A DNA stretch of 64,000 bases from Desulfosudaceae bacterium (GCA_963674745.2 CAXXDV010000003.1:1376001-1440000); one strand, 5' to 3'. Shown: positions 17,724-34,900, numbered from the stretch's first letter. Made by a program: numbers and translations. The notes: generated from the sequence alone by a model not told the origin.

Positions 17724-17874
17724 GAGAAAAGATGTGAACACAAGATAATTATCGTTCGCCTCAAGAGCGATCACAGATCCCCTTAAATCGCCGACTGTTT
17801 CCTCCGCCTCTCTGGTTACACCTGATAAATGTCATCCCAAAGCCACTTGACAACATGTGGTACCCTCAAAAATA

Positions 17875-17906
17875 TTGACACACAAGATGCTCTTGCTATA
17901 TATAAT
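17875..17906 (+). promoter_or_regulatory. Candidate sigma70 promoter of the radical-SAM operon
   Basis: TTGACA (17875-80) followed by TATATA at 16 or 18 bp and TATAAT at 20 bp; dyad CAAGA-tgc-TCTTG inside the spacer. Confidence 0.55.
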
Positions 17907-17932
17907 ACCCATAAAAGCAGATTCTTACATAA

Positions 17933-19300
17933 ATGCAGCCTCTTCCTCCACATATGCATGTCTACATCATACCCTTCCAGGATAAGTTTGTCGTCTACAG
18001 ACCTTTAAAAAGATTAGCCTTTATTGCTAATTCGGCCATGGTTAATCTTATTGCGAAGATACAGGAGAAGTCACATTTTAAGGGCCTGCCGACGCACAGT
18101 GAAGCCATGGCCTTTCTCGATGCCGTCGGTTTTTTTGAACCCGACCCCCGGCCTACCCAACCGCCGCCAGTTCAAGAACCGTATTTACCGACAGTCGCGG
18201 TCGTGTTTTTAACCACTGACTGTAATTGTAAATGTGTTTATTGTTATGCTTCAGCAGGCGGTGTGCCGGCCACGGAAACGCTTCCCGTCAGGCTGGGATA
18301 TCGCACCATTGATGTTGTCTGTGAAAATGCCCTGCTGACCGGAAAAAACAAATTCACGTTGAGCTTTCATGGCGGCGGCGAACCGACGATGGCGTCGAAA
18401 AAAATGAAACAGCTGATAAATTACGCCAGAAAAAAAGAAGTACCCTGTCATGCCAATCTTACAACCAACGGTTGCTGGTCTGCGGCTGACAGGGAGTGGA
18501 TTCTGAACAATTTTGACGATGTCAGCCTCTCTTTTGACGGTTTGCGTGAAATTCAGGACCGCCAGCGTCCGCTTGCAAGCGGTAGAGGAACATATGACCT
18601 GGTTATGGCGAGCATTACGGCCATGGACCAGCGGCAGTTGTCTTATGGTATCCGAATGACGGTAACAGAGGACTCTGTCGATCAATTGCCGGAAAACATG
18701 AAATTCCTTTGCAGCAGCACGGATTGCCGGGTTTTCCAGGTGGAGCCGGCGTCCAATCATGGACGGGCAATGCAGGGCCATAATGCCCTGACCCAATACG
18801 ATCGATTTGCCCGGGCCTTTCTTAAAGCATATGATATTGCCGTGGCTGCGGGCAGGCACATGTATTATTCAGGCGCAAGGCCCTGGGTGATTACCCCACG
18901 TTTTTGTCAGGCCCCGGAAAATGCTTTGATTGTGGGTACGGACGGGTTTCTCACGGCATGTTATGAAGTGTGCAGTAGAGACCACGAACTGGCGGGGCTG
19001 TTTTGCTTTGGTGATATCTCCGAAAACGGGATAATGTCCGTGCACGAAAAGACCCGGCAGGCGCTTTTTGAAAAAATTGAACAGCGAAAAAAACAGTGCC
19101 GGGACTGCTTTTGTTTCTGGCATTGTGCCGGAGACTGCCCGTCCAAGACAATGACGGCGGATGGCAGGGGGCACCTTCGGTTTGACCGACGGTGTGATTT
19201 GAACCGCCATATTACCCGGGAACTGATTATACGCAACATTACAAACGGTAACGGTATCTGGCAGGGGGCATCAGAAGAACAGATGCTTGTCGCCTGTTAG
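17933..19300 (+). CDS. Radical SAM/SPASM peptide-maturase-like enzyme 1
   Basis: CNCKCVYC (CxxxCxxC), FHGGGEP, TTNG, SFDG; SPASM: FC...DGFLTAC...CRDCFCFWHCAGDC...C. Confidence 0.92.
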   Translation: MQPLPPHMHVYIIPFQDKFVVYRPLKRLAFIANSAMVNLIAKIQEKSHFKGLPTHSEAMAFLDAVGFFEPDPRPTQPPPVQEPYLPTVAVVFLTTDCNCKCVYCYASAGGVPATETLPVRLGYRTIDVVCENALLTGKNKFTLSFHGGGEPTMASKKMKQLINYARKKEVPCHANLTTNGCWSAADREWILNNFDDVSLSFDGLREIQDRQRPLASGRGTYDLVMASITAMDQRQLSYGIRMTVTEDSVDQLPENMKFLCSSTDCRVFQVEPASNHGRAMQGHNALTQYDRFARAFLKAYDIAVAAGRHMYYSGARPWVITPRFCQAPENALIVGTDGFLTACYEVCSRDHELAGLFCFGDISENGIMSVHEKTRQALFEKIEQRKKQCRDCFCFWHCAGDCPSKTMTADGRGHLRFDRRCDLNRHITRELIIRNITNGNGIWQGASEEQMLVAC

Positions 19301-19327
19301 GGCAGTTAACACCAAAAGGAATCGACG

Positions 19328-19780
19328 ATGGAAAAGAGAAGGAATCCTGGCGCTGCGACAACATCCCGCCGGAACTTTTTCCGTCGTTTTTTTACTGAAA
19401 CGATAAGCCTTATTGAGGAAGCCAGGGGAACCCCCCAGCTCAACCTGAATGATATCGCAGCGCTCCCGGATGAGATTTTCGGTAGTATCATTCCGGTTTT
19501 CAGTGAACATACCCGGTATCGGATTGAAGGTGATCGGCTACTCATCGTCGATGAAAAGAGCGCTATTTTCAGAAAAGCCTATCAATTTACGCCTCGAGAG
19601 CTGTATGTTTTGAATCAATTTGACGGACATAATACATTAAATTCAATTGTTTATGTAATTATAAACCAGTTTGACCAAGATGCCGAAGCAGCGTTTCAGC
19701 AGGTAAAAAATCTGTTCTGCACCATGGCCGGATACGCGGTATGCCATCCGCTGCATGAAACACCGGAGCAGCAAAAATGA
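19328..19780 (+). CDS. PqqD/RRE-like protein with an N-terminal SRRNFF extension
   Basis: C-terminal 'RLLIVDEK...YQFTPRELYVLNQFDGHNTLNSIVYVIINQFDQDAEAAFQQVKNLFCTM' fits the PqqD/RRE winged-helix pattern; SD AAGGA; ATGA overlap with the next gene. Confidence 0.7.
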   Translation: MEKRRNPGAATTSRRNFFRRFFTETISLIEEARGTPQLNLNDIAALPDEIFGSIIPVFSEHTRYRIEGDRLLIVDEKSAIFRKAYQFTPRELYVLNQFDGHNTLNSIVYVIINQFDQDAEAAFQQVKNLFCTMAGYAVCHPLHETPEQQK

Positions 19781-21162
19781 ACCGGGCAGATATTGCCGAT
19801 ATTTACGCCATTTCCTTACCAGAAGAGAAGTTTCTGCTATATTCCCCGTTAAGGGGTTTTTCCGCGCTCGTAAACCGGAAAGCCCTTGATGAATCCGCCC
19901 GGTTTGTAACGGGAAAACCATGCCGAAACAGGGGGGCGTCACCGCTTGACGCTATTTTCAATGCGCTTTCAACGCCTGCTTTACCCCCTCCATTTGAACC
20001 GGATAAGCTGCTGGCTCCTTTTTTTCTGGGTATTATTCCCACGCGGGCCTGTAACATGTCCTGCCGTTATTGCGATTTCGGGGACCAATCGCCGGGTTCG
20101 CAGTCCATGGATTTACGGACTGCTGTAGCTGCTGTGGACTGGATGGCGGACCATGTTTATCGGACAGGCCGGGATAAACTGGAAATCCACTTTTTCGGCG
20201 GAGAGCCGTTTGTCGCCCCAGATGTCGTGGACGCCGCCGTTTACCGGGCGCGGGCTGTTGCCGGGGAAAAAGGGATACCCCTTCATCTGGAAGTGTCCAC
20301 CAACGGTCTATTTGATGAGAACAGGGCCGTTTTTGTGGGGGATTACTTTAATTCAGCTGTTATTTCCCTGGATGGATTCCGGGAAACACATGACCGTCAC
20401 CGCCCCCTAGACGGGAGCAGAGGTAGTTTTGATGGTGTCGTAGAGTCAATTCGGCGGCTTTCGATGACGCCGGCAGAGGTTTGTCTGCGGTGTTGTATAT
20501 CGCATATAAACGTGGACAGGATGGAAGCGATTGCCCGGTGGTTCTGTGAAGAATTAAAACCATCTGTCGTAAACTTTGAAATCGTAAGTTCAAATTCAAA
20601 ATCAGATGCGGCGGGATTGTTTCCGCCCGACCCGTATCGTTTTGCCGGTAATTGCGTTCGGGCCTGTCGTCTTGTCCGACAATTCGGGATTCAAGCGGTT
20701 TACGCGTCGGCATCTATTGATACCGTGCGTCGAAGTTTTTGTCCCATGGGAAAGGATACCTTGATCGTTTCTCCCGATGGACGGATCAGCAGTTGTTATC
20801 TGCCGGACAGGGACTGGAAGAAAAAGGGACTGGATCTTGATGTGGGACGTCTGAGAACGGATGGTTCAATGGATATTGACATGGCTGCAATCCAGCGTCT
20901 GCGCCGGATAACCGCCGATAAGCCCGGCTGTGAAAAATGCTTTTGCAAATGGACTTGCGCCGGAGGCTGTCATGTCAGGCAATACGATCAGGCAGCTGTT
21001 TCTACAAAAAATGATTTTTGTGTTCAGACGCGCCTTATTACCGCCTGTTCTCTGCTGGACAACCTTGGATTCCGCGATCTGGCCGATTCGCTTCTGGCGG
21101 ATATGGACGCGATGGAAACTCTGGCGTTGAATCCATCGGATTATTTGGTACAATTCACATGA
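19777..21162 (+). CDS. Radical SAM/SPASM peptide-maturase-like enzyme 2
   Basis: CNMSCRYC, FFGGEPF, STNG, ISLDG; SPASM FC...PDGRISSC...CEKCFCKWTCAGGC...FC. Confidence 0.92.
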   Translation: MNRADIADIYAISLPEEKFLLYSPLRGFSALVNRKALDESARFVTGKPCRNRGASPLDAIFNALSTPALPPPFEPDKLLAPFFLGIIPTRACNMSCRYCDFGDQSPGSQSMDLRTAVAAVDWMADHVYRTGRDKLEIHFFGGEPFVAPDVVDAAVYRARAVAGEKGIPLHLEVSTNGLFDENRAVFVGDYFNSAVISLDGFRETHDRHRPLDGSRGSFDGVVESIRRLSMTPAEVCLRCCISHINVDRMEAIARWFCEELKPSVVNFEIVSSNSKSDAAGLFPPDPYRFAGNCVRACRLVRQFGIQAVYASASIDTVRRSFCPMGKDTLIVSPDGRISSCYLPDRDWKKKGLDLDVGRLRTDGSMDIDMAAIQRLRRITADKPGCEKCFCKWTCAGGCHVRQYDQAAVSTKNDFCVQTRLITACSLLDNLGFRDLADSLLADMDAMETLALNPSDYLVQFT

Positions 21163-21196
21163 TGTATGGAAATTAAACCATAACGAAAGAGGCCAT

Positions 21197-22822
21197 ATGG
21201 ATGACTCTAGAAAAGATGATCGCTTGAAGCAAGTGCCCGAGAATCCGGATGAAAAACCTGAGGTGTACGCGGTCTCAATGAAAAAAAAGAGGGTTTCATT
21301 AAGCCGTCGTGCTTTTTTGGGCAGTATCGGTACCGGCGCGCTGCTGACCGCCTGTGCTGAACTAAATCCTCAAAAAAACGGATGTGTCGACAAAACAGCC
21401 GGCCGGCCGGGGGGTGTTTCACAATTACCGTCGGAACCGGTAAAAGAAGTGTATGAGTGGTGCGAAAATTTTAATACCCATTCAAATTCCGTCAATGCCC
21501 TGGCTGTCAGCCCGAATGGCCGGATGCTGGTGTCGGGAAGCGCCGACACAACGATCAAATTATGGTCTCTCCCCGGGGGAAAGCTCCTGAAAATCTTAAA
21601 GGGGCATTCAAATGTTGTAAATACGGTAGCCGTCAGTCCGGACGGCAAGCTGCTGGCTTCCGGAAGCGGCGGTAAGACTGTCAGGCTGTGGTCTCTTAAA
21701 AATGGCCGGGGGCTGCTTTCTTTGAAAGGGCATTCAGCGTTTGTCAAGTCTGTTGCCTTCAGCCCGGATGGCCGGCTGCTGGCTTCCGGAAGCGGAGACA
21801 AAACCATTAAGTTGTGGTCTCTGCCGGAGGGGAAACTGCTGAAAACCCTGACGGGACATTCGAGTTATGTGTATGCGGTTGCCTTCAGCCCGGACGGTAA
21901 ATTTCTAATATCCGGAAGCGCTGACAAAACCATCCGGTTGTGGTCTTTGCCGGACGCAATGCTGTCACAAACCCTGACAGGGCATTCCGACTATGTCAAC
22001 TCACTGGTTGTCGGTTCGGACAGCCGGCTCCTGATATCGGGAAGCTGTGACAGAACGATTAAACTGTGGTCTTTGCCGGACGGGGGGCTGTTGCAAACCC
22101 TGGCAGGTCATTCCGGCTGGATCAATACTTTAGCGATCAGCCTGTGCGGACATCTGCTGGCGTCGGGAAGTGCTGATAAAACGGTAAGAATATGGTCCCT
22201 GCCGGAGGGTAAACCGCTTCTGGTGATGATGGGCCAGGATTTGCCGATAAAATCCGTGGTAATCAACCCGGAAGGGAATTTGTTAATATCGGCCGGTAGT
22301 GACAAAACCATTACCGTATGGACGCTTCCGGATGGATCCCCCAGTTGGTGCTTTTCCGATCCTGCCTTAACCGCGCCGCAGGAGATGAAAACCTTTCGTC
22401 AGATGGGATTTTGCACCCGGATCCTGCCCTGTGGCGCACAGATACCGCCGGGGGCTGTTTGCACTTGTAATTGTGTGGCAGCGGCCTCTATCCACAAGGG
22501 GCCTGAAACGATCTGTATTTGTGATACCATCGCCGTCCCGGCCTTCAAAACGCTGCCGGGAAATACGGTGTGTGTCTGCAACACAATTTTAGTCGGCACG
22601 GGTTGTATCCCCAAGAATCATGAACGGCACATGTCAGGGAAGTCCTGTACCTGCAATACTATTTGTACCTGTGATACGGTGTCGAGGGCCGGTCTTCCTT
22701 GTTCCCGTTATGCTGTAGGCGGCCACACAAAACAGACGACCGGAACGACTTGTACCTGCGATACCATCTGCACCTGCGATACGGTTTCAACAGGAGGCGG
22801 GCATTACTGGTATCCCACTTAA
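21197..22822 (+). CDS. Tat-lipoprotein WD40 beta-propeller with a Cys-rich repeat tail (candidate substrate of the rSAM operon)
   Basis: SRRAFL + hydrophobic stretch + LTAC lipobox (Cys53); seven 42-aa GH...W repeats; tail with 7 CxC[DN]x[IV] units ending GGGHYWYPT; SD GAGG. Confidence 0.88.
   Translation: MDDSRKDDRLKQVPENPDEKPEVYAVSMKKKRVSLSRRAFLGSIGTGALLTACAELNPQKNGCVDKTAGRPGGVSQLPSEPVKEVYEWCENFNTHSNSVNALAVSPNGRMLVSGSADTTIKLWSLPGGKLLKILKGHSNVVNTVAVSPDGKLLASGSGGKTVRLWSLKNGRGLLSLKGHSAFVKSVAFSPDGRLLASGSGDKTIKLWSLPEGKLLKTLTGHSSYVYAVAFSPDGKFLISGSADKTIRLWSLPDAMLSQTLTGHSDYVNSLVVGSDSRLLISGSCDRTIKLWSLPDGGLLQTLAGHSGWINTLAISLCGHLLASGSADKTVRIWSLPEGKPLLVMMGQDLPIKSVVINPEGNLLISAGSDKTITVWTLPDGSPSWCFSDPALTAPQEMKTFRQMGFCTRILPCGAQIPPGAVCTCNCVAAASIHKGPETICICDTIAVPAFKTLPGNTVCVCNTILVGTGCIPKNHERHMSGKSCTCNTICTCDTVSRAGLPCSRYAVGGHTKQTTGTTCTCDTICTCDTVSTGGGHYWYPT
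21479..22360 (+). repeat. Seven tandem 126-bp WD40 coding repeats
   Basis: Units such as HSxxVxxVAFSPDGxLLASGSxDKTIKLWSLPxGxLLxTLxG at 42-aa period. Confidence 0.93.
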
Positions 22823-22834
22823 GCCGGACGGCAG

Positions 22835-25672
22835 ATGAATATTTTAACTCCTGCGAATAAAAACGACATAACCGACGATTTCACGGCAGCGGACACTTTT
22901 TCTGTCGGCAATTTTATGCTTAAGGGGAAGGTCCATCCGAAACTGCCTCTGTTTGAACTGCGTTCGGGCGGTCAAAGCGTATTGTATGCGCCCGGAAAAG
23001 TTGCCGTTGTAGATTATCCGAATGCCGAAGCGATCTGCCGGGCATGGTCCGGAGACGGTGTCCTGTCTCCGGGCAGCATTTCCGGTCAGACGGCCCGATG
23101 GCTTGAAACGCATGCGGAAAATGCCCTGAAAAAATGGAAGGCTGTTACCGGCATGCCTTTCCAGCCCGAATGCCTGACCATTTACCCGGGTATTCAGTGC
23201 AACCTGAAATGTGGTTATTGTTACGCGCGGAACCGTGACGTTGATGAAACAGCGGGAAGCAGGTCAGGCCGTCCGGTTATGGCTGATTCGGTTGTGGCTT
23301 CCGCTGCCGCGATTGTAGCGAAAAACTGCGCCGACAAAGGACTTCCGTTTCATCTGGTTCTGCACGGCGGTGGAGAGCCCTCATACTACTTTGATCAGGT
23401 GCGCCGTTATACGGCGATAACCCGCCAGGCTGCCCGGCAGCTCGGGCTGGACTGGTTCGGGTATATCGCCACCAATGGGGTAATGCCTGAAAAAAATGCC
23501 CGGTGGCTGGCTGAAAATTTTACGCGGATCGGACTGTCGTGCGACGGCCCTCCAGATATTCAGGACAGGCAGCGGCCGCTTAAAACTGGCGGCAGAACCT
23601 CGCCACAGGTAAAACAGACCGCGCGTATTTTAACTGAACATGGCGCGGATATGGTTGTCCGCGCCACCCTGACACCCTGGTCTTTTTCTCGTCAGACTGA
23701 AATTGTCACCTATTTTTATGAGCATTTAAATCCATCCGCCATACGTTTTGAACCGGCTTTTCGACTTCGGGATAATGGGCATCCGGGATTCACCGCAGAC
23801 GATGCGTCAATTTTTGTCGAGCATTTTCTGGCTGCCAGGAAGACAGCAGAATCCATGGGATGCCATCTTTCCTTATCCGGTATCCGGCCCGAAGAGATCC
23901 ACGGCCCTTTTTGCGATGTCCTGCGGAATGTCCTGCGTCTGGGACCGGACGGTTCGGCTACGGCCTGTTTTCTGATATCAGATGAAACGGTACCTGTCAG
24001 TTCGCCTTTTTTGATTGGCCGGGCGGACCCGGACACGGGTGATTTTATTTTAGACACCAAAAAGATAGAGGCATTCCGGCGTTCCGTCGCCGTCATACCT
24101 GCCGAATGTGAACAATGCATCAATATCTGTCATTGCGCCCGGGGATGTCCGGACCGGTGTCCGGTTTTAACCGGGTCGCCCGTTGATCCGGAGAATAAAA
24201 ATAATAATAATTTTCTGTGCCGGTTGTATCAAAAACTGGCGCCGGCCCTCATTATGGACGCAGCGGACAGGTTGATAAACAGAGAACAAAAAAAGGCGGT
24301 GACGATACTACCCGATATCGGCATCTCCGATGAAGCCGGCCTTAACCTGAATGATCTGCCGGCTGCCGTAAACAGGGAAGAGATCAGAAAACAGTATGAC
24401 GCGGTGGGCGGTACCTATGATATTACAGCCGGCCGCTTGCCGGAGCCTGCCTGGCGGAAAAAGGGGTTTACCTTCAATGGCCCTGATGCCTGGCATTATC
24501 TGCGTCGGGTTTTACCGGATACGGATCACGCCCGACCGGTGTCTATTTATTTCCATGTCCCGTTTTGTGAACACCGGTGTGCCTTTTGTGACTGCTATGC
24601 CTTTCCCTTCGGGAAAAAAAGGTCCGTAAAAGAAGAGGCCTTTTGCCGGGCGCTTGTAGCTGAAATGCGTTTTTGGTCGGATATTTACCCGATCAGCCGA
24701 CGCCGGGTTACGACCGTCCATTTCGGCGGAGGGACCCCGGGGTGTTTGAATGCTCCTGTGTTTGATCGAATTCTGACGGAATGCCGCGATCTTTTTAAAG
24801 TCCATGAGCAGACGGAATGGGCGCTGGAAACAACCGTTTCTCACATCAGGCAGGAAGATTTGAACCGGTTGGGAAAATTGGGCTTTTCCCGGCTGCATGT
24901 TGGGGTTCAGACCTTAAATGAGGATTTAAGGCAATCCATTGGGAGAAGGACTTCAGCCAAGGATGCTGTCTTCAGGCTGAAAAAGGCCATGGGGGCAGGT
25001 TTTGTTGTTTCCGTAGATATTTTATATGGCCTCCCCGGACAGCGCTTATCGGATGTGCTGAATACCCTGTCGATCCTGATTGACATGGAGATTCACGGTC
25101 TGTCGCTTTACCGTTTCAATGTATCAAAACGGAATCGATGGTATATTAAGCGTTGCCGGGAGTTTAACCCGGATCCGCGTCGTGATTACTTGATGTTTCA
25201 GGCCGCGGAGCAAATGCTGACCAAAGCCGGTTATCGGAAAAACCATTTTGCGCATTTTGCAAAACAAGCGGATCGCAACCTGTATTTCACCTGTCCGCTG
25301 AGGGGGGAAGACCTGCTGGCCATGGGGCCGACGGCAGACGGTTTTTTCGGTAATTATCGATACCGTAACGCGGAATATGCAAGGTATATGAACCAGTTGC
25401 AAAACAAATCAGGCATGCCGGTGCTGCAAGGCTGTCTTGAGGAATCAGACCTTGAGGTCAGGGCGCGTCCGGCGATCCTCGACATTATGGGCAGCCATAT
25501 CCGGAGAAGCGTTCATGAACATCTGGGTATCGACAGTCTGATCAAGAAATGGGAAGACTGTCTGCTGATCGAAAATTTATCCGGCGGAAATGATTTTGCG
25601 TTAACACCGAACGGCTCCTGGTTTGTTAATCAAATGATTGCTGATGTTTTACATGATCTTGAAAGCAGGTGA
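22835..25672 (+). CDS. Double radical-SAM fusion: N-terminal rSAM/SPASM + C-terminal HemN/class C methyltransferase-like rSAM
   Basis: CNLKCGYC, LHGGGEP, SPASM (FC...C; CEQCINICHCARGC); second domain SIYFHVPFCEHRCAFC, TVHFGGGTP, RLHVGVQT, DILYGLPGQ. Confidence 0.9.
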   Translation: MNILTPANKNDITDDFTAADTFSVGNFMLKGKVHPKLPLFELRSGGQSVLYAPGKVAVVDYPNAEAICRAWSGDGVLSPGSISGQTARWLETHAENALKKWKAVTGMPFQPECLTIYPGIQCNLKCGYCYARNRDVDETAGSRSGRPVMADSVVASAAAIVAKNCADKGLPFHLVLHGGGEPSYYFDQVRRYTAITRQAARQLGLDWFGYIATNGVMPEKNARWLAENFTRIGLSCDGPPDIQDRQRPLKTGGRTSPQVKQTARILTEHGADMVVRATLTPWSFSRQTEIVTYFYEHLNPSAIRFEPAFRLRDNGHPGFTADDASIFVEHFLAARKTAESMGCHLSLSGIRPEEIHGPFCDVLRNVLRLGPDGSATACFLISDETVPVSSPFLIGRADPDTGDFILDTKKIEAFRRSVAVIPAECEQCINICHCARGCPDRCPVLTGSPVDPENKNNNNFLCRLYQKLAPALIMDAADRLINREQKKAVTILPDIGISDEAGLNLNDLPAAVNREEIRKQYDAVGGTYDITAGRLPEPAWRKKGFTFNGPDAWHYLRRVLPDTDHARPVSIYFHVPFCEHRCAFCDCYAFPFGKKRSVKEEAFCRALVAEMRFWSDIYPISRRRVTTVHFGGGTPGCLNAPVFDRILTECRDLFKVHEQTEWALETTVSHIRQEDLNRLGKLGFSRLHVGVQTLNEDLRQSIGRRTSAKDAVFRLKKAMGAGFVVSVDILYGLPGQRLSDVLNTLSILIDMEIHGLSLYRFNVSKRNRWYIKRCREFNPDPRRDYLMFQAAEQMLTKAGYRKNHFAHFAKQADRNLYFTCPLRGEDLLAMGPTADGFFGNYRYRNAEYARYMNQLQNKSGMPVLQGCLEESDLEVRARPAILDIMGSHIRRSVHEHLGIDSLIKKWEDCLLIENLSGGNDFALTPNGSWFVNQMIADVLHDLESR

Positions 25673-25946
25673 AGATGGTTCACTTTGATCCTGATGTCGT
25701 CTGGTCTGTTGACTGCCGCGGTTTGTCGCTGGTTCACCGTAAAACAGGTGACCGCGCTTGCCTGGTTTATCCCCAAGCCGCTTTATGGGATCTGTTGAGC
25801 AGAGAGGTGGAAATGACGAGGATCATCCGGATCATGACGGCTCTGACGGCGTTGAGGACCCGGCTGTCCGGCTATGGTGCCGCCGGACCGTCCAGGGCTG
25901 GATTGACGCGGGCTGGATGCTCGAAGACGGGGAAACCGCATCATGA
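25669..25946 (+). pseudogene. PqqD/RRE-like protein interrupted by a 1-nt frameshift near 25848 (real lesion or assembly error)
   Basis: Joining ORF 25669 (to ...IMTALT) with the -1 frame (GVEDPAVRLWCRRTVQGWIDAGWMLEDGETAS*) gives a 92-aa RRE-sized protein with a GTGA overlap upstream and an ATGA overlap downstream. Confidence 0.72.
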
Positions 25947-27940
25947 CGAATCTTTCCCTTACCTCTGAATGTAACCAGAATTGTTCATACTGCTTTGCCG
26001 GGAATATAACGGAAGTCAGCCGTTTTCCCCGCCGGGAGTATGATGGGTTCCTCGCGTTTTTGAGGCGGTCAGGGATCAAGCAGGTCCGGTTGCTGGGCGG
26101 TGAACCCACGCTTCATCCGGACTTTATTTTTTTTGTAGAAGAGGCTTTCCGTCAGGGCTTTCATGTGCTGGTATTTTCAAACGGCATGATGCCTGAAAGC
26201 GCCGTAAAATGTCTTGAAATCCTGCCCCCGGACAAGCTACTGGTTCTGGTAAATACCACCCCTTCCCGGCGTTGGAACATGAACCTACGTGGTCGCCGGA
26301 TCGAGATATTGAAACGTTTGAATCAGAGGGTAATGATCGGTTTAACCATTCACACAACGAACCCTGATATTGATTCCATCTGTTCGTATATTGAAATATT
26401 GAATTTACGCCCCGCCATCCGCCTGGGTCTGGCCCATCCCTGCCCGGACAGCACCAATCAATGGTTGCCTCCCAAGCATTATTGTCTGGTCGGACAAATC
26501 ATAGCCGATTTTATCATTCGGCACCCGGATCTGTCGATCGAGTTTGATTGCGGCTTCGTGCCCTGCATGTTCCCGGACTGGTTTTTTTCACAGTCTGTTT
26601 TCAAACCGGAGGACATCGGGCGCCGCTGCGGGCCGATACCGGACATCTTACCCGATGGCTCAGTAGTGCACTGTTTTCCGTTACGTGCCATATCGAAACT
26701 GACACTGGATCAACTGGCCTGTGCCCGGGCGGCAGGAAAAGAATTGTCGCGAATGGTTGCACCGTATCAGCATACGGGTATTTTCCCGGAATGCGGCTGC
26801 TGTGAATATCGGACGGCGGATCAGTGCTCCGGCGGTTGTATTGCGGCAGCCGGCCGGCGCTTGAGAAGTTCGTCTCAATGCTTTTCTCTGTCAATTCCGC
26901 TCAGCACATCCCTTGCGTCGGATTTTACCGGCAATGAGCCGTCCCCCGGTAACGGGACGCTGGAAGATGTGAACGATGCCAGGGTGGACAAAGATTTCAT
27001 CATTCCGTATATCGATCAGCCACCGCGTTTCTGGGAGGAAATTTATAGCGCCTTTGGCCGGTTTATCAAAAAGGTGTATTGTCCCCTGCCCGGCAGTAAA
27101 ATCGGTTCCGGGCGTCCGCCTCAACCCGATGACCATTTACATCAATTTTTATGTTCCGGTTATTTTGAGACGGATATCCTTATCAACTCGCCTTTTGTTA
27201 AAGAACCGCTGGACGATTTTACAAGCCGTGTCATCAGGGAATTGAGGCTGTTTTCGGAGAAATACCCTTTATCGGGCGTGACGATTGCCAATCGTAAGGT
27301 CGGCAGACGGATCCGGGAGGTATTTCCTGACCTGACCCTGACGGCTTCGGTGTTGATGGATGTTTACGGGCCTGATCAGATAAAACGGATGGGGGATACT
27401 TTTGACTGCCTGGTTCCGTCCAGCAGGATTATGCGTAATATCAATGCCCTGATGCGGATCAGGCAGGCTTTTGCCGGGAAGATACGGTTGATCGCCAATG
27501 AAGCGTGCCTTCCGGGCTGCCCCTACCGTGATCAGCATTTTTACGAGATGAATTCCGACCGTTCGTACCCTGAATCGCTCTGTACCGACCTTCTCGAGGA
27601 AAAACCATGGCTGCGCTTAACCGGTGCCTGGGTTCTTCCGCAGCACCTGTCTTTTTTCGATACCATCTATGATGAACTCAAACTGGCGGGCCGCGTTACC
27701 TTAAAAGATCCGGCAAAGTATATGAAGGTGCTGAATGCTTATATTACCGGGACGCCGCTGACCCCGGATGAAATCGGCGGCGGGCCGGCGTCTGTCCTAG
27801 ACCCTGTTTATATTGATTCTGATTTTTATTTTTCCACGTTAAATTGTGATAAACAATGCCATCAATGCGATATCTGCAGCACATATTATGAAATGCAGAC
27901 CAATCCGGTAGAAAATGAAACAGAAAAAGTGCCTGTATGA
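25943..27940 (+). CDS. Radical SAM/SPASM fused to a peptidase-U32-like Fe-S domain
   Basis: CNQNCSYC, LLGGEPTLHP, SPASM-like C...C...CGCC...CSGGC; from ~aa 352 a U32-like barrel: GVTIAN, LTASV, IANEACLPGCPYRDQH, C, LKLAGR, terminal CDKQCHQCDIC. Confidence 0.8.
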   Translation: MTNLSLTSECNQNCSYCFAGNITEVSRFPRREYDGFLAFLRRSGIKQVRLLGGEPTLHPDFIFFVEEAFRQGFHVLVFSNGMMPESAVKCLEILPPDKLLVLVNTTPSRRWNMNLRGRRIEILKRLNQRVMIGLTIHTTNPDIDSICSYIEILNLRPAIRLGLAHPCPDSTNQWLPPKHYCLVGQIIADFIIRHPDLSIEFDCGFVPCMFPDWFFSQSVFKPEDIGRRCGPIPDILPDGSVVHCFPLRAISKLTLDQLACARAAGKELSRMVAPYQHTGIFPECGCCEYRTADQCSGGCIAAAGRRLRSSSQCFSLSIPLSTSLASDFTGNEPSPGNGTLEDVNDARVDKDFIIPYIDQPPRFWEEIYSAFGRFIKKVYCPLPGSKIGSGRPPQPDDHLHQFLCSGYFETDILINSPFVKEPLDDFTSRVIRELRLFSEKYPLSGVTIANRKVGRRIREVFPDLTLTASVLMDVYGPDQIKRMGDTFDCLVPSSRIMRNINALMRIRQAFAGKIRLIANEACLPGCPYRDQHFYEMNSDRSYPESLCTDLLEEKPWLRLTGAWVLPQHLSFFDTIYDELKLAGRVTLKDPAKYMKVLNAYITGTPLTPDEIGGGPASVLDPVYIDSDFYFSTLNCDKQCHQCDICSTYYEMQTNPVENETEKVPV

Positions 27941-28049
27941 AAACAGAGGGGGTGATAATGACAGATAGTGCCCTTTTATTTTTCTGGACAAGAATGATCG
28001 TCCGGTGAATGGATCGGAAATGCCTTGCAAAGGATGCTTTTACAGTTTG

Positions 28050-28496
28050 TTATCCAAATATATCGATTTTACTTTCACCGCTCATATATCTGAAATAGTC
28101 AGACAAAATACGCCCGTGATCAAAAGCCAGGGTTTCCGGCAAGGTGTCTTTGGTATAAACAACGGCCCTGGCGGCATCGTCTGCAGCAATGGGCGTACCT
28201 TCGGCTTCGGCGATAAAAACGACGCTGGCCGTATGGTGACGGGGGTCACGGGCTGGATCGGAATAAACGTGAAACTGCTCTTTCAGGCTCACATTCAGCC
28301 CGGTTTCTTCAGCCGCCTCGCGAACAGCAGCCCTTTCCACCGATTCACCGTAATCGACAAACCCGCCCGGCAAAGCCCAGCCATAGGGCGGATTTTTGCG
28401 TTCAATCAGAATGATACCGCCATTGATTTGAATAATGATATCAACAGTCAAAAAGGGGTTGCGGGGATTGTTCATATACGGATTCTTCCCTTTCAA
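28050..28496 (-). CDS. NUDIX hydrolase (ADP-ribose pyrophosphatase-like)
   Basis: Nudix box [33 protein letters not shown]. Confidence 0.93.
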
Positions 28497-28540
28497 AGCC
28501 AGGCCGGTGTTTTTGTTATTTAAGAGGCTGGGTTGTTCAA

Positions 28541-29109: not shown

Positions 29110-29529
29110 TTGATGGGAGACTGGATGTCCGAGTTGTTTCGACTGAAATCAGTCTTTAAACCGTTGGTTATTGTTATGCTGGGGGGCGGTCTGGGCGCGG
29201 CCAGCCGATATCTGGTCGGTTTATTGAGCGCCAGGATATGGGGGACTCATTTTCCCTGGGGAACGCTTATCGTTAATCTGGCGGGTTGTTTTCTGATCGG
29301 TTTTTTTTTCGCCCTTTCGGACCGGGCCCGACTGCTGACACCGGAAATGCGCCTTCTGTTGATCACCGGATTTCTGGGCGCACTGACCACATTTTCTACG
29401 TTTTCTCTTGAAACCACCAACGCCGCTCGAGCCGGCATGACGCTTCAGCCGGTTGTTAATATTCTGGTCAACAACCTGGGCGGTATCGGCTTGACCTTTC
29501 TGGGGTTATGGCTGGGAAGCCTTAAATAG
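29110..29529 (+). CDS. crcB: Fluoride channel CrcB/Fluc
   Basis: GGGLGAASRY, FPWGTLIVNLAGCF, TGFLGALTTFSTF; true start may be ATG 29125. Confidence 0.95.
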   Translation: MMGDWMSELFRLKSVFKPLVIVMLGGGLGAASRYLVGLLSARIWGTHFPWGTLIVNLAGCFLIGFFFALSDRARLLTPEMRLLLITGFLGALTTFSTFSLETTNAARAGMTLQPVVNILVNNLGGIGLTFLGLWLGSLK

Positions 29530-29537
29530 GGGGGGGA

Positions 29538-30827
29538 ATGCTTAATTACAAAGCGATCGAGATTTTTACCAGCGAAGAAGCACGTTACCGGAAAAAGCCG
29601 TTAGTCGATACGGTCCTGCAATATATCAAAGACTTGAAGATTGCCGCCCGCTGTATCGTCACCCGGGGTATTGCCGGTTGTTACGAAAGCGGTGAATTGA
29701 CGACTACCCGCCTGGAAATCCTCTCTTTCAACCTGCCGGTCCGAATCTATATCGTTCTTCCAGACGCTGAAGCCGAACGGGTGCTCGACGGACTGAACGA
29801 GATGATCACCGACGGCATCGTGGCGCTGCATGATCTGAACGTACTCTGTCACCGGACGCAAAATGCCTTTTTTCCCAGGCAGCTCCTGGTTCGGGACGTC
29901 ATGACCCGCGATCCGGAATGTGTGACAGCCGGCACCGCTTTGAGCGATGTGGTTCGCCTGCTTTTATCCTCGATTTTTTCAGGGTTGCCCGTAGTCGATG
30001 AGTTCAACCGTCCCGTGGGTGTCATCACCCAGGGGGATTTGATTAAAAAAGGCGGCCTTCCCCTGCGTTTGGGGCTGCTGGCAGAGTCCGATCAGAACCG
30101 CCTGGCGTCTGTTTTAAACCGGCTTTCTTCCCGAACGGCCAGCGAAGTCATGACGACACCGGCGGTGATGATTGCCGCCGACCAGCCATTAACCAAAGCA
30201 GTGGAACTGATGTTGAACAAAGGCGTTAAACGCCTGCCGGTAGTCGATAAGAACGGCGGAATCTCAGGCATGCTGTCGCGGCTGGATATCTTCCGGACGG
30301 TCATGCGGGAGGCGCCGGACTGGGACACATTCAAGGCGCAAAAAATAGAAGTAAAACAGCTAAAACGCGTAGGGGACATTTTACACCGGGACGTGCACGC
30401 CGTCTCACCGGAGACGACGATTGATGAAGTTATCCGGTTTATCGATGACAACGCCATTCAACGGGTGGCCGTTGTTGACACCGGGGGAAAACTGCTGGGG
30501 TTGATTTCGGATCGTGATTTGCTGCGATACTTCAAGCCGGAGCAGGAAGGTGTCTGGCGTATATTGGCAAAGATGAAAAACCCCTTCAAGCAGGAGACTT
30601 CCGATTCCGGAGATATTCAAAAGCGCCTGTCCGAGATAACCGCAGGAGCGGTCATGACAACAACGGTGATTACGGTTGATGAGGACATGAAAATCGAAAC
30701 GGCCATCGGTTTGATGCTTGACAAGGGGCTAAAACGGCTTCCCGTAATTAACCGGGATGGCCGGTTCCAGGGCATGATCAGTCGGGACGCGCTGTTGCGG
30801 ACGGGGTATGGAAGCCAGGCGTCTTGA
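29538..30827 (+). CDS. DUF190 (PII-like) domain + two CBS pairs
   Basis: 'IFTSEEARY...VTRGIAG...ILSFNLPVRI' DUF190; four CBS repeats (GLPVVD, KRLPVVD, RVAVVD, KRLPVIN). Confidence 0.85.
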   Translation: MLNYKAIEIFTSEEARYRKKPLVDTVLQYIKDLKIAARCIVTRGIAGCYESGELTTTRLEILSFNLPVRIYIVLPDAEAERVLDGLNEMITDGIVALHDLNVLCHRTQNAFFPRQLLVRDVMTRDPECVTAGTALSDVVRLLLSSIFSGLPVVDEFNRPVGVITQGDLIKKGGLPLRLGLLAESDQNRLASVLNRLSSRTASEVMTTPAVMIAADQPLTKAVELMLNKGVKRLPVVDKNGGISGMLSRLDIFRTVMREAPDWDTFKAQKIEVKQLKRVGDILHRDVHAVSPETTIDEVIRFIDDNAIQRVAVVDTGGKLLGLISDRDLLRYFKPEQEGVWRILAKMKNPFKQETSDSGDIQKRLSEITAGAVMTTTVITVDEDMKIETAIGLMLDKGLKRLPVINRDGRFQGMISRDALLRTGYGSQAS

Positions 30828-31920: not shown

Positions 31921-34900
31921 GTGACAAAAAACAATAAATTCAAGATGCTTATAATATTTCTGCTGGTCTTCCCCCTTTTTCCCGTCGACGTCACCGCCAA
32001 TGCGGATAAATATGAACTGGTCCTGCGTCAAACCGCTTCCGACTTAGGATTTGATCCGGCTGTTAACCGGGAGGGAACGGAAGATGAGATTTTTTACTCT
32101 ATTACCGCTTACAACCCGGACATGATGGGGCTGCAATTCAAGGTCATGGTCTATAAAAGCAAAAAGATCAAACAGGGTGTCTTGGAAATGGGCAATGCCT
32201 TTATGCAAACAGCCAAAGCCCAGGCCGGTTCACTGCCCTCAAAATCCTCGTCCACACGGATCTTTGACGGAATCAGTGTAGAACAGGTGTCGTGGGCGCC
32301 CCACAACTACAGCGGCCCAGTTACCGCCGGCGCCACGCTTAAAACCACCACCCTGACGGTAGAGCCCGATCCACTGATTGTTTTTTCGGTCCTGGTCCAG
32401 GGCGATCGCAATCCCGACCCCTATATGTCGGCCTTGATCAAGAATCTTAAAAATGCCGGGCTGTTCGGACCGGTGGATGAAGGTGTGGCCTTTACGGTCC
32501 AGGTCCGAAAAGACGGCTGGCTGCCTGTTGATCGGCCGGTGGCCACAGGCAATGCCTCCCCTTCCTCCATCACATTGACAGGGCGCGTACTGGACCCGGC
32601 CGGGCAACCCGTCACCGGCGCGCGACTGCACATCCCGTCGCTAAACCTCTCGACTGACACCAACATGGATGGTTCGTTCCGGCTTTATACGGCAACCCAA
32701 GGGAAAGACCCTTTTACACTGGATTTCAATATTACCATGCAGCAGCCCGTATCCGGCACACGGGTCACCATAACCGGGCCGGATTTTCAAACATTGCCGG
32801 TGCCTTATAACACACAGTTAACCATTTCCGCGACTGACCGGAACGGCCAACCAATCTCAAAGGCGGCGGTCGGCCTGAACTGGACCATTCCCGGTTTTGT
32901 CAGGGCCCCGGTAGCATCCACCATGCTCGACACCCTGGGGCAAGCGAAAATCCCCCTGGAAATCCATAGGCCGGGCCCCATAAACAGCAATGTTTTGGCC
33001 GCCGAAATGCTGACCGTCAAAGTGGAAGCCGTCGTCAAACCCCGGGACGGCGGCGAAACCGCCCGGGGCATCTATACCTCCCCGCTTAACCTGGCCCTGA
33101 TTTCAGGCTTGACTGTGGGGCCGGACATGCAGCCTCGAGAGGAAGCCGAAGCGCCCCGCATAACAGGGGTATCACAGAAAATGTGTGTCGACCGCTGGAA
33201 AGATGAAACCGGACGGTTCGGCATTTTGGTCCACCCGCTTCATCCGGTTTCTTTGAAACCCATGGACAACTGGGAGTTGTTCTGGAACGAGAACAACCAC
33301 CTGCCGCTCAATTATCCAATGGCAACAAGCCCCCAACCCGGTCAGGTTCTTGAAGTGGGAAAAATTGACGTGCTGACGCCCCAAGAACACATCCAACGAT
33401 TGACCGGCGTTTTAAAAGAATTCTGCTCTGCCATGGCGCTGACACCGACAGAACAGTCCGGCATTCAGAACGCCATTCTCAGGCTGGTGTTTCAGCCCGG
33501 TTCTTCAAATGATGTTCCCGTTTACCTGGACAACTATACGGATGATTCCGGAATTATCACCACACCCGGAAAAGCAGAAGCATACTGGGGCAACAACCTG
33601 AACGTGGGCGATGACCCGGCTTACCAGATCATTCCCCATGAGCTGGGTCATTTTGTCCACCATCATCTCGTCGAAAAGCACGCCTTCATCCATATGTGCT
33701 ACAACAAGCTGTCCACCGGAGATCATGAGACATGGAAAGTGCCGTCCACGGCACGATTCAAGGCCCCCTATCTGAGTTTTTCCGAAAACACCGCCGATTT
33801 CTTCGCCCTGGTATTCCGGAATTTCTGGGCGTCCCGTCACCCGGAAATCAAAGAGTCCCCTTATTTTATGCGGCCGGGGTACATGCCGGAGTTTAAAACA
33901 GACGAAAAGGCCATGGCGGTGGTCGGTTCCGGTACTCCCGGTTACCTGGTCGAAGGCGTACAAACACGTTTTCTGCGGGCGTTTTACGGCAACGCGGTAA
34001 ACACCCGGCCGGCGGTTGTCTTCAACGACTATCTCAACACCATGCTGCTTCACCTCGACCGGCAAAGCGGCTGGGCGGGCACCTTGACCAACCGGCCGGC
34101 ACGGACCATCTCCCAGTGGGTGCAGACCAAACAAAGTTTACCCAGAGGGCTCGGTTCTGCTGATGTCAGCGCCCTGGCAGGCCGGTACCGCCTGTTTGAG
34201 GGTGCCGAACCGGAACCGACCGCGACACCCGAATTCGGCAAAAAAGAGTCCCGCATCATCATCTATGGCCATAAAGAAGACTTCAGCGCTTTTCCGGTTG
34301 TGACGATTCCATTCAACCAGATTATCCAGGTCACGGCCGGGTTGATCAATATCGATCTCTCGGACGCGACCGTCACGCGCACACTGGTGGTTAAGGCCCC
34401 GGCCCGGATAAAACTGTACTCCCGCACCAGAATAAAGGTTTACATGGGAATGGTCGGTGCGGATTTTCCGATAGAAATCGAAACGCCGGGCGGCATTATC
34501 AAACCAACAGGCACCGTGGTCCAGGTTCATGTCGATGATCAGGAACAGACCGACGTGAGCACCCTGCACGGGAGTGTCCAGGTCACGTCAAACACCGGCC
34601 GGATTACATCTCTGGGTGCCGGGCAATCGATTCAAATGACCGCCGATGGCGCTTTTTCCGCTGTTAATGCCTTCAACCCGGAAGCGCGTCTGTCTGCGTT
34701 CCTGCCCGACCTGGAATTGCCCCCCCTCCCCCGGCAGGGATCCGGATCTTCGCCGGGATTAATCCTGAATCAAATTCAGGAGCGCATCAAAGACTTTCCC
34801 TGGACGAACCCGGACCGGGTCAGGGAAAGGATAAAAAACCTTCCCCGGTGGGCACTGCCGGCTGCGGCCCTGCTGGCCGCCATCCTGGGAGCCATTTCGC

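Follow-up and report, generated by a model that had tools for sequence, protein, structure and literature searches.

What might a bacterium accomplish with a single polypeptide that carries two different radical S-adenosylmethionine (SAM) enzymes? The question is raised by gene E, a 945-amino-acid (aa) open reading frame (ORF) in a 64,000-nucleotide (nt) stretch of DNA from a Desulfosudaceae bacterium (GCA_963674745.2, CAXXDV010000003.1:1376001-1440000), the whole of which we call the window and from whose first letter positions are counted. Our reading, to which we assign a probability of about 0.6, is that E is the two-headed maturase of a multi-enzyme radical-SAM system that modifies the C-terminal tails of exported proteins, here the WD40 lipoprotein encoded by the adjoining gene D. 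The features of both genes on which this reading leans are the following, E_N being the SPASM (N-terminal) part of E, as a gene or as a label in trees.

22835..25672, plus strand: gene E, SPASM radical-SAM half and HemN-like radical-SAM half in one 945-aa protein (ORF, translation, Pfam, NCBIfam, homologues)
23198..23221, plus strand: first radical-SAM cluster motif of E, C122-x3-C126-x2-C129 (CNLKCGYC, residues 122-129; invariant in 109 sequences)
23912..24220, plus strand: SPASM cysteine region of E, C360...C462 (conservation in 109 sequences)
24242..24499, plus strand: linker of E, residues ~470-555, break site of the split forms (E_N stop positions in 13 loci)
24452..25669, plus strand: HemN-like half of E, residues 540-945 (NCBIfam, phmmer, PDB comparison, tree)
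21197..22822, plus strand: gene D, WD40 protein of 541 aa, probable substrate (translation; WD40 E-value 1.5e-82)
22349..22819, plus strand: tail of D, rich in Cys and bearing six C-x-C-[ND]-T motifs (window scanned for motifs in six frames)
22802..22819, plus strand: core motif at the very end of D, H-Y-W-Y-P-T, encoded by its final six codons (the sole window ORF with this ending)

Two radical-SAM halves of different subclasses on one chain

The original prediction, made from the sequence alone, had described an uninterrupted 945-aa ORF with CNLKCGYC and SPASM cysteines in its N-half and HFGGGTP in its C-half. ORF listing, translation, Pfam and NCBIfam bore this out: the ORF opens with ATG, its 945 codons are translated without an internal stop, Pfam PF04055 (Radical_SAM) matched two stretches (E-value 4e-34), and NCBIfam aligned residues 113-451 to PapB-type radical SAM/SPASM maturases and residues 555-939 to HemN-family models. 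Homologues align only from residue ~28-32 and, because they begin there, the true start of E may be M28 (nt 22916) and not M1. Both halves belong to the radical SAM superfamily, as judged by a CxxxCxxC motif in a partial TIM barrel and a match to PF04055. The SPASM motif, C-x9-15-G-x4-C ... C-x2-C-x5-C-x3-C ... C, comprises seven cysteines and serves two auxiliary clusters. E holds the complete set (C360-x12-G373-x4-C378, C425-x2-C428-x5-C434-x3-C438, C442 and C462), and with these cysteines seen and conserved and the PapB model spanning residues 113-451, the N-half falls within the SPASM subfamily; Pfam PF13186 (SPASM) gave no match to E at an E-value of 0.01. The closest matches of the N-half were PapB, anSME and CteB. 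Every NCBIfam score lay under its curated cut-off (PapB, 60.2 vs 340 bits; anSME, 59.2 vs 349; QhpD, 49 vs 453; SCIFF, 42.2 vs 425), which rules the N-half out as an equivalog of PapB, SCIFF, QhpD or anSME. In the C-half, HVPFCEHRCAFCDC occupies residues 574-587 (H574-VPFC578-x3-C582-x2-C585-x-C587) and HFGGGTP residues 629-635. Pfam, NCBIfam and the alignment agree with the prediction that two radical-SAM enzymes of different subclasses, SPASM-type in the N-half and HemN-like in the C-half, share one chain.

In an alignment of 109 full-length E homologues (35-47% identity), C122/C126/C129, C578/C582/C585 and GGG631-633 were invariant, as were C378, C425, C428, C434, C438, C442 and C462 of the SPASM region, and both C360 and C587, the fourth Cys of the second cluster motif, were conserved in at least 90% of the sequences. 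The junction between the halves was likewise conserved, with P536 and W540 invariant and P538 and W553 at 90% or above. Since these cysteines are invariant or at least 90% conserved in 109 homologues, the motifs go far beyond what chance would give. When 5.8 billion proteins were searched with E, 143 relatives were returned at E-values up to 1e-3, and among the 120 matches listed 118 clusters span at least 88% of E, at 35-46% identity and from many phyla. The two-enzyme fusion is unusual, as had been predicted, yet by this count it is conserved as a family. Their sources name these relatives only as 'radical SAM protein with SPASM domain', as 'oxygen-independent coproporphyrinogen III oxidase' or as 'anaerobilin synthase'.

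A candidate substrate directly upstream of E

D ends 13 nt upstream of E and is likely to be the substrate of the cassette. Judged by its sequence, it is built like the substrate of a leader-guided maturation, enlarged to the size of whole proteins that leave by the twin-arginine translocation (Tat) pathway. A leader, KDDRLKQVPENPDEKPEVYAV, at residues 7-26 (DDRLKQV...EKPEVYAV) is followed by a twin-arginine signal (S36-RRAFL), a hydrophobic stretch and a lipobox-like LLTAC53, then by WD40 repeats (~residues 90-380) and finally by the Cys-rich tail (residues 385-541, 157 residues). In a six-frame scan, neither the C-x-C-[ND]-T repeats nor a HYWYPT-type ending occurred in any other ORF of the window, and no short precursor ORF was found in the window. 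Searched against the 5.8-billion-protein set, the tail of D gave 14 matches, all named 'WD40 repeat protein' or 'hypothetical'.

Related loci were collected by scanning one genome per species, which yielded 74 loci, nearly all from metagenome-assembled genomes and many of them cut by contig ends. They belong to Acidobacteriota, Thermodesulfobacteriota, Chloroflexota, Planctomycetota, Verrucomicrobiota, Armatimonadota, Bacteroidota, Chlorobiota, Calditrichota, Gemmatimonadota, Actinomycetota, Pseudomonadota and candidate phyla. The C-terminal pattern [YF][WY][YHRFW]P-x closed 74 of the 10,166 ORFs of these loci (55 loci), with 0.15 expected from the rate of the same pattern inside proteins. The composition of the 74 tails, in which Pro at -2 was fixed by the search pattern, was as follows.

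Position -6: His 66, Ser 4, Thr 3, Val 1
Position -5: Tyr 74 (limited by the search pattern)
Position -4: Trp 72, Tyr 2 (limited by the search pattern)
Position -3: Tyr 48, His 13, Arg 12, Phe 1 (limited by the search pattern)
Position -1: Asn 62, Thr 4, Cys 3, Ser 3, Asp 2

The leader was equally recurrent. When 34 precursors were aligned, P21, R37, R38 and F40 were invariant, and the consensus DDRLK...E-x-P-E-[IV]-Y-A-[IV] stood directly before the twin-arginine signal. Cys-rich repeats recur in the tails of related loci beside leader and terminal motif, and the segment between leader and tail proved interchangeable, being made up of WD40 propellers, of Pro/Thr-rich proteins (in Anaerolineae) or of no more than peptides of 51 and 57 aa. 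WD40 carriers also occurred in tandem, with 4 copies in locus L001 and 3 in L018. In two loci (L057:16350-16793 and, on the minus strand, L047:13809-14267) a true PqqD domain (PF05402, 48 and 57 bits) bears a Ser/Gly-rich extension ending HYWYPN. A system of the type that makes peptides assembled by the ribosome and modified after translation (RiPPs), in the sense of a PqqD/RiPP recognition element (RRE) together with a leader/core precursor, is thus suggested by the small cassette proteins B and F (see below), by the fusions of L047 and L057 and by the leader of the 34 precursors.

Two arrangements among the precursors are recorded here as observations. L047 and L057 hold recognition domain and core in one polypeptide. 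Locus L016 encodes, just upstream of E, a 51-aa precursor (L016:9677-9832) with the first leader motif (KNDRLHPVPQEEQ), the ending CTCVGHVSRSSHYWHPN and no export signal, and the same locus holds a full WD40 precursor.

The histidine at position -6 tracks the HemN-like gene

Counting a HemN-like gene of the family at 130 bits or more, we found His at -6 in 66 of 66 tails from the 48 loci that have such a gene and in none of the 8 tails from the 7 loci that do not, in which Ser, Thr or Val stands instead (endings SYYYPN, SYWYPN, TYWYPN and VYYYPN). The 7 loci (L022, L031, L038, L050, L051, L059 and L068) keep ~10 kb of flank on both sides, represent five phyla and are scattered on the E_N tree; their taxa are Acidobacteriota (3), Calditrichota, Bacteroidota, Chromatiaceae and Desulfobacteriaceae. 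By a hand calculation that ignores relatedness, such a split would arise by chance once in C(55,7), or ~5e-9. Independent contrasts, of which there were 2 on well-supported branches and 6 on the best tree, were all concordant. This co-variation ties the HemN-like half to the His at -6. No enzyme replacing the HemN-like gene was found in the 7 loci, nor was any gene family specific to them.

A minimal pair was provided by locus L035 (L035:7760-12757), where a leader-bearing double-propeller WD40 protein, free of tail Cys and ending THYWRPN, is followed 22 nt on by a fused E, with no other radical-SAM, PqqD or cassette gene within 10 kb on either side. Together, the co-variation and the L035 pair point to the terminal H-Y-W-x-P-N as the probable target of E, and to its His as the residue that the HemN-like half may act on or require.

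The HemN-like half forms a branch of its own

The C-half had been predicted not to be a heme-biosynthetic HemN, and this was upheld by its scores, its phylogeny and its surroundings. NCBIfam gave 185.7 bits for ChuW/HutW (TIGR04107; cut-off 400), 143.5 for HemW (TIGR00539; cut-off 205.4) and 134.9 for HemN (TIGR00538; cut-off 324.95), and relatives of the C-half behaved alike, with the ChuW/HutW model best at 175-211 bits. When 1.84 billion representatives were searched with phmmer, the C-half family (fused and standalone) scored ~250-430 bits, with 226 matches below 1e-30, and ordinary HemW-type proteins ~135-150 bits. For the phylogeny, E. coli HemN, HemW and ChuW references were picked by annotation and confirmed at 808, 470 and 567 bits; the IQ-TREE tree was built without TbtI and NosN, and from that group only NocN was compared, via its PDB entry. 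In the careful run, 41 cassette rows fell on one side of a branch supported at 100/100 (the bootstrap not being fully settled), HemW (5 rows) was a clade at 100/100, ChuW grouped with a ChuW-like protein at 84/90, and HemN stood alone. The C-half therefore groups with neither HemW nor HemN. Its identity as HemN is ruled out by the 134.9 bits, the separation from E. coli HemN and the absence of heme-pathway neighbours, no heme-biosynthesis gene having been found in the 64-kb window by Pfam and the gene survey; as HemW, by the score of 143.5 and a HemW clade, E. coli HemW included, that excludes it; and as ChuW/HutW, by its position outside the ChuW branch and 185.7 bits as against 567 for E. 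coli O157 ChuW. In pairwise comparison the C-half was equidistant from ChuW (113 bits), HemN (112) and HemW (105), and a PDB search placed HemN first (98.7 bits) and the methylase NocN second (77.9).

Residues that bind a second SAM beside the cluster-bound one are diagnostic of HemN-like proteins (PMC12871812). Their counterparts in E, Y572, R686, D728 and S757, were invariant in the 109 homologues, Y572 aligning with HemN Y56 and NocN Y34, and the other three with NocN R153, D196 and S225. These residues place the C-half among the presumptive HemN-like proteins in the broad sense and, because they are conserved, two-SAM chemistry is plausible; the C-half probably makes the SAM-derived methylene radical common to the HemN family (PMC10114718). 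Other positions gave mixed hints. The best hidden Markov model (HMM) is that of ChuW, but the C-half shares with HemN the fourth Cys of CxxxCxxCxC, which NocN, ChuW and HemW do not have (Phe in HemW and ChuW), as well as His629 before GGGTP, which is Tyr in NocN and ChuW. In NocN, Tyr96 is a ligand of the second SAM (PMC12871812).

The cassette around E

E is the fifth gene of a packed plus-strand operon (17933-27940, genes A to G), with gaps and overlaps of -4 to +35 nt. Besides D and E it contains the following genes.

17933..19300, plus strand: A, radical SAM/SPASM maturase paralogue 1, 455 aa (Pfam Radical_SAM and SPASM)
19328..19780, plus strand: B, PqqD/RRE-like protein, 150 aa (weak ScmD match, 20.8 bits; weak PqqD match, E-value 0.12)
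19777..21162, plus strand: C, radical SAM/SPASM maturase paralogue 2, 461 aa (Pfam Radical_SAM and SPASM)
25669..25946, plus strand: F, second small PqqD/RRE-like protein (family alignment, three-frame reading, hhalign vs B)
25943..27940, plus strand: G, radical-SAM domain (1 to ~330) and a C-half (~340-665) weakly like peptidase U32 (Pfam Radical_SAM; PF01136 in homologues)

The window system thus counts five radical-SAM domains, and with PqqD-like proteins and a Cys-rich substrate candidate beside it, the setting of E is that of a peptide- or protein-maturation cassette. Gene order varies among the 74 loci, of which 47 have A, 40 B, 49 C, 36 a WD40 gene and 51 G; F was found in 18, and a divergent F-like ORF in 23 more. 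The best NCBIfam match of A was PapB (110 bits, below the cut-off of 340), and it may start at 17954, since its homologues begin to align at residue 8. By hhalign, F and the PqqD-like part of B are homologous (probability 93.3%, E-value 2.8e-7). F matches its family only to ~residue 62, and a 1-nt frame change is needed near 25845-25850: the family-like C-terminus (...RRTVQGWIDAGWMLEDGETAS) lies in the -1 frame, where the stop overlaps the start of G (ATGA). The frame break may be a 1-nt deletion, that is, a real defect, or a sequencing indel. In B, an N-terminal RR (RRxFF) is present whose R14 and R15 are invariant in the family alignment, with no hydrophobic signal core behind it, and B may be a Tat-signal mimic or a proofreading chaperone. 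As for the C-half of G, 28 of 37 homologues matched PF01136 at E-values up to 1 (best 3.5e-6) and the window copy did not; an atlas gave a lead to U32 (0.94), hhalign probabilities against E. coli UbiU and UbiV (0.9% and 0.2%) were not significant, and a PDB profile search returned nothing relevant, only a chance primase match. The PqqE and MftC models gave 19-46 bits only on the cassette. A SynChlorMet (Scm) cassette was rejected (ScmD, 20.8 vs 100 for B; ScmE, 22.1 vs 400 for G), and PADLOC returned only generic viperin-type radical-SAM matches, and therefore no known defence system.

Some further observations concern individual cassette genes. The RRxFF of B resembles the twin-arginine motif of the substrates, and peptidase U32 is the family of the oxygen-independent hydroxylases UbiU and UbiV. 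In Chloroflexota (Anaerolineae, e.g. L054:7369-8535) an extra radical-SAM protein of ~388 aa occurs in 14 loci and a ~290-aa family in 7; both are lineage-specific additions. Domains are also joined in other ways. G is fused ahead of E in some genomes, giving three radical-SAM domains in ~1,560 aa: in P0024, one such triple fusion, residues 1-657 are 42% identical to the window G (E-value 5e-171), and P0025 and P0037 were assigned to the same ~1,560-aa type by length and match positions only. A HemN-like domain is fused to the U32-like half of G in L062:2867-4810 and to SPASM paralogue C in L063:2185-4620, and in P0173 the order is reversed, with the HemN-like domain before the SPASM domain.

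Fused and split forms of E

The proposal to check whether orthologous clusters split the two halves had a clear outcome: by BLAST thresholds both halves lie in one ORF in 33 of the 74 loci, and in 21 they are separate genes. Some HemN-like rows that appear to stand alone are contig-end cuts. In 13 of the 21 split loci the genes are adjacent, N then C, with the E_N stop placed 59-143 nt ahead of the residue that aligns with window residue 540, indicating that the break falls in the linker (residues ~480-540). A HemN-like domain tree gathered the adjacent split forms, most of them from Chloroflexota, in one clade (100/98) and the fused forms in another (88/93 in the careful tree; 96 by the SH-like approximate likelihood-ratio test, SH-aLRT, in a 74-row quick tree). 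Rooted with the outgroup, the tree fits a single fusion followed by a few later fissions.

These data also bear on the prediction's own caveat, an assembly or sequencing artefact that joined two neighbouring genes. Split forms do exist in other genomes, and the apparent 1-nt indel in the adjoining gene F makes indel errors in this sequence possible. The same architecture is nevertheless met in the 33 fused loci, each an independent genome locus, and in the 118 clusters counted above, the linker is conserved and the fused forms are one clade. With those 118 clusters, of 120 listed, spanning 88% of E or more and both CxxxCxxC motifs invariant in 109 homologues, we regard the chance of an artefact as negligible.

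A model for the cassette and the alternatives to it

The maturase reading can be laid out as a sequence of steps. The precursor would be made in the cytoplasm with its N-terminal leader directly before the twin-arginine signal, and the PqqD-like proteins B and F would hold that leader. The SPASM half of E would work on the terminal Tyr/Trp part of H-Y-W-x-P-N, and A and C (in one telling also G) would probably handle the Cys-rich repeats; the presence of C or G showed no clean pattern when set against the number of tail Cys repeats. The HemN-like half would bind two SAM and act on, or need, the His at -6. It might attach a one-carbon unit from SAM to an sp2 carbon in the imidazole or in a neighbouring ring, giving a methyl group or a methylene bridge; or its SAM-methylene radical might abstract a hydrogen, as in HemN, leading to a crosslink or a decarboxylation. 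The finished, folded protein would then leave by the Tat pathway. The original prediction had called E a crosslink-then-methylate machine. The non-HemN C-half, the maturation cassette and the second-SAM residues sustain part of that description; the methylation, the order of the events and the nature of the crosslink did not advance beyond conjecture.

Several points weigh against the maturase reading. We infer which half touches which residue, in what order the steps follow, and every chemical step. Profile comparison by hhalign found the N-terminal domain of E dissimilar to the PqqD-like B and F (probability 0.2%), an atlas gave only a weak lead to PqqD (0.89, on 11% of cluster members), and the PqqD signal of B is itself weak. 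The apparent frameshift in F means that the window cassette is perhaps not fully intact, or that the sequence has an indel error. A tail-bearing ORF stands immediately upstream of an E_N gene in only 9 of 69 cases. A sign test on the contrasts cannot reach 0.05, and a small number of evolutionary events could lie behind the link with His; in the 7 loci without it, the HemN-like gene is absent within 10 kb, which is not the same as absent from the genomes. Finally, the fourth Cys and His629, being HemN-like, argue against simple methyl transfer, a comparison made with two methylases only (NocN and ChuW).

The chemistry of the HemN-like half is where the alternatives differ most. Read literally, the original prediction has the SPASM half crosslinking and the HemN-like half acting as a class C methyltransferase that C-methylates or methylene-bridges an sp2 carbon of His, Tyr or Trp, which we hold to be possible, though we would not bet on it. 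The ChuW/HutW model fits best both in the window and in relatives, favouring carbon addition, NocN is the second PDB match, the second-SAM ligands are conserved, and the co-varying His offers an imidazole ring to a class of enzymes that attack sp2 carbons of heteroaromatic rings (PMC12871812, PMC10114718). All scores are, however, far below the ChuW cut-off of 400, the half is equidistant from ChuW, HemN and HemW, and His629 and the HemN-type fourth Cys, with the limit of two methylases just mentioned, favour hydrogen abstraction weakly. Were the half to work as HemN does, with hydrogen abstraction only and no carbon transfer, the product would be a His-Tyr/Trp crosslink, a desaturation or a C-terminal oxidative decarboxylation. 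This is rather unlikely in our estimate, even with the CxxxCxxCxC motif, the His before GGGTP, HemN as best PDB match, a conserved core at the very C-terminus with its free carboxylate at hand, and a revised HemN mechanism that consists of hydrogen abstraction by the SAM-methylene radical (PMC12871812); the HemN model reached only 134.9 of the 325 bits required, the clade is a separate one, and nothing here tells this chemistry from one-carbon transfer.

Two more alternatives concern the substrate and a role in heme handling. The WD40 protein could be a scaffold, as WD40 domains often are, or an unrelated neighbour, with the true substrate a small molecule or a peptide encoded elsewhere; WD40 genes are found in only 36 of the 74 loci and the window yielded no short precursor ORF. 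We consider this improbable, since leader and terminal motif are kept whatever lies between them (WD40, Pro/Thr-rich segments, 51-57-aa peptides or PqqD fusions), the terminal motif co-varies with one enzyme, and the tandem paralogues look like multiple precursors. More improbable still is that the C-half loads or processes heme for the exported protein, either as a chaperone like HemW or as a heme-handling domain like ChuW, with His -6 as the ligand. HemW and ChuW are its nearest named families, the His found wherever the domain is found might serve as an axial ligand, and Tat export is generally known to serve cofactor-loaded proteins. Yet the C-half reaches neither the HemW nor the ChuW cut-off, falls outside the HemW clade (100/100) and has its fourth Cys where HemW and ChuW have Phe; neither a CxxCH motif nor a heme-uptake or heme-synthesis gene was found in the cassette or the window, and the partner genes are of peptide-maturase types.

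A bolder version of the maturase reading, which we think distinctly unlikely in full, is that the cassette builds, free of oxygen, a new protein-derived cofactor or crosslinked knot from the terminal His-Tyr-Trp of Tat-exported beta-propeller lipoproteins, the SPASM half joining the aromatics and the HemN-like half methylene-bridging or crosslinking the His. If true, E would be the first enzyme of the HemN-like kind to act on a side chain of a protein, and the product would parallel, under anaerobic conditions, the quinone and crosslink cofactors for which aerobes use oxygen.

Other genes of the window

Upstream of A, a small ORF at 17829-18008 has neither leader nor core motif. Downstream of the cassette, the 172-aa ORF at 28005-28523 (plus strand) is spurious, being present in none of the 74 loci; the real gene lies on the opposite strand, where 28050-28496 encodes a 148-aa protein with a NUDIX box (NUDIX hydrolase). 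Further on come crcB, a fluoride exporter, then a protein with DUF190 and four CBS domains (29110-30827), and a 1,170-aa protein with only weak CarboxypepD_reg and Big_1 matches (31921-35433). At Rfam gathering thresholds the window held one tRNA only, and no fluoride riboswitch upstream of crcB. The remaining genes are housekeeping genes of a diderm bacterium.

Novelty and relation to known systems

Neither the fusion nor the cassette nor the motif was described in any paper returned by full-text literature searches, whose range excluded subscription journals and bioRxiv supplements. The words 'fused' and 'fusion' do not occur in a review of HemN-like proteins (PMC10114718), and a term search for 'HemN', 'WD40' and 'class C' found none of them in a compendium of RRE-associated radical-SAM enzymes (PMC10288494). 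The cassette is apparently a widespread gene set undescribed in the searched literature: its kind, radical-SAM maturation of ribosomal products, is known, and what is unusual is the enzyme architecture and the substrate class. Present in at least a dozen phyla, mostly of uncultured anaerobes, the system would modify full-size Tat substrates and not short peptides; the searched literature offered only one such protein-scale case, CrpC/CrpA (PMC13692751). HemN-like enzymes are routinely mis-annotated as coproporphyrinogen oxidases, and a His that tracks the enzyme within a conserved C-terminal motif gives this orphan HemN-like branch a directly testable substrate. Should a cofactor or structural knot be what is formed on periplasmic beta-propellers, this would open up a new class of protein modification and would also account for the common annotation 'hypothetical WD40 repeat protein'.

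With the HemN-like and class C enzymes (HemN, HemW, ChuW/HutW, NocN/NosN, TbtI) the C-half shares Y-x-H-x-P-F-C-x3-C-x2-C, GGGTP and the second-SAM ligands. It differs from them in scoring below all cut-offs, in forming its own clade, in its fusion to SPASM and in its presumed substrate, the C-terminus of a full-size exported protein. TbtI and NosN are HemN-like enzymes able to act on ribosomal peptides (PMC10114718).

The radical SAM/SPASM maturases PapB, CteB, anSME, QhpD and CrpC resemble the N-half in its core and seven-Cys SPASM set, and the substrate candidate is likewise Cys-rich. QhpD reportedly introduces crosslinks into one protein subunit, and the enzyme in question includes a beta-propeller subunit as well. 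The N-half nonetheless reaches only 41-60 bits against cut-offs of 340-453, and the cassette combines three SPASM paralogues with a HemN-like domain and a radical-SAM/U32-like protein, the substrates bearing Tat signals and an aromatic C-terminal core and not only Cys. CrpC installs ranthionine crosslinks on the Cys-rich protein CrpA, which is not a short peptide (PMC13692751).

The PQQ and mycofactocin systems (PqqA/D/E and MftA/B/C) likewise unite a recognition protein of the PqqD type and a SPASM radical-SAM enzyme with an aromatic core that is conserved. The mycofactocin core, too, lies at the extreme C-terminus. Membership is excluded by the scores (19-46 bits), and the present system, with its five radical-SAM domains, leaves the core on a large exported protein. 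Bufferins are RiPPs with signal peptides and Cys-based modifications that are found in the periplasm (PMC11626156); unlike the present candidates they are modified by MNIO and not by radical-SAM enzymes, and the likeness is one of description.

For the fusion itself, the parallel is the FO synthase FbiC, a CofG-CofH fusion with two radical-SAM domains that serve one pathway and are separate genes elsewhere (PMC11917521). FbiC belongs to other families and acts on a small molecule, and the halves of E come from different subclasses, SPASM and HemN-like; E is, like FbiC, one polypeptide with two radical-SAM domains that other lineages encode as separate genes.

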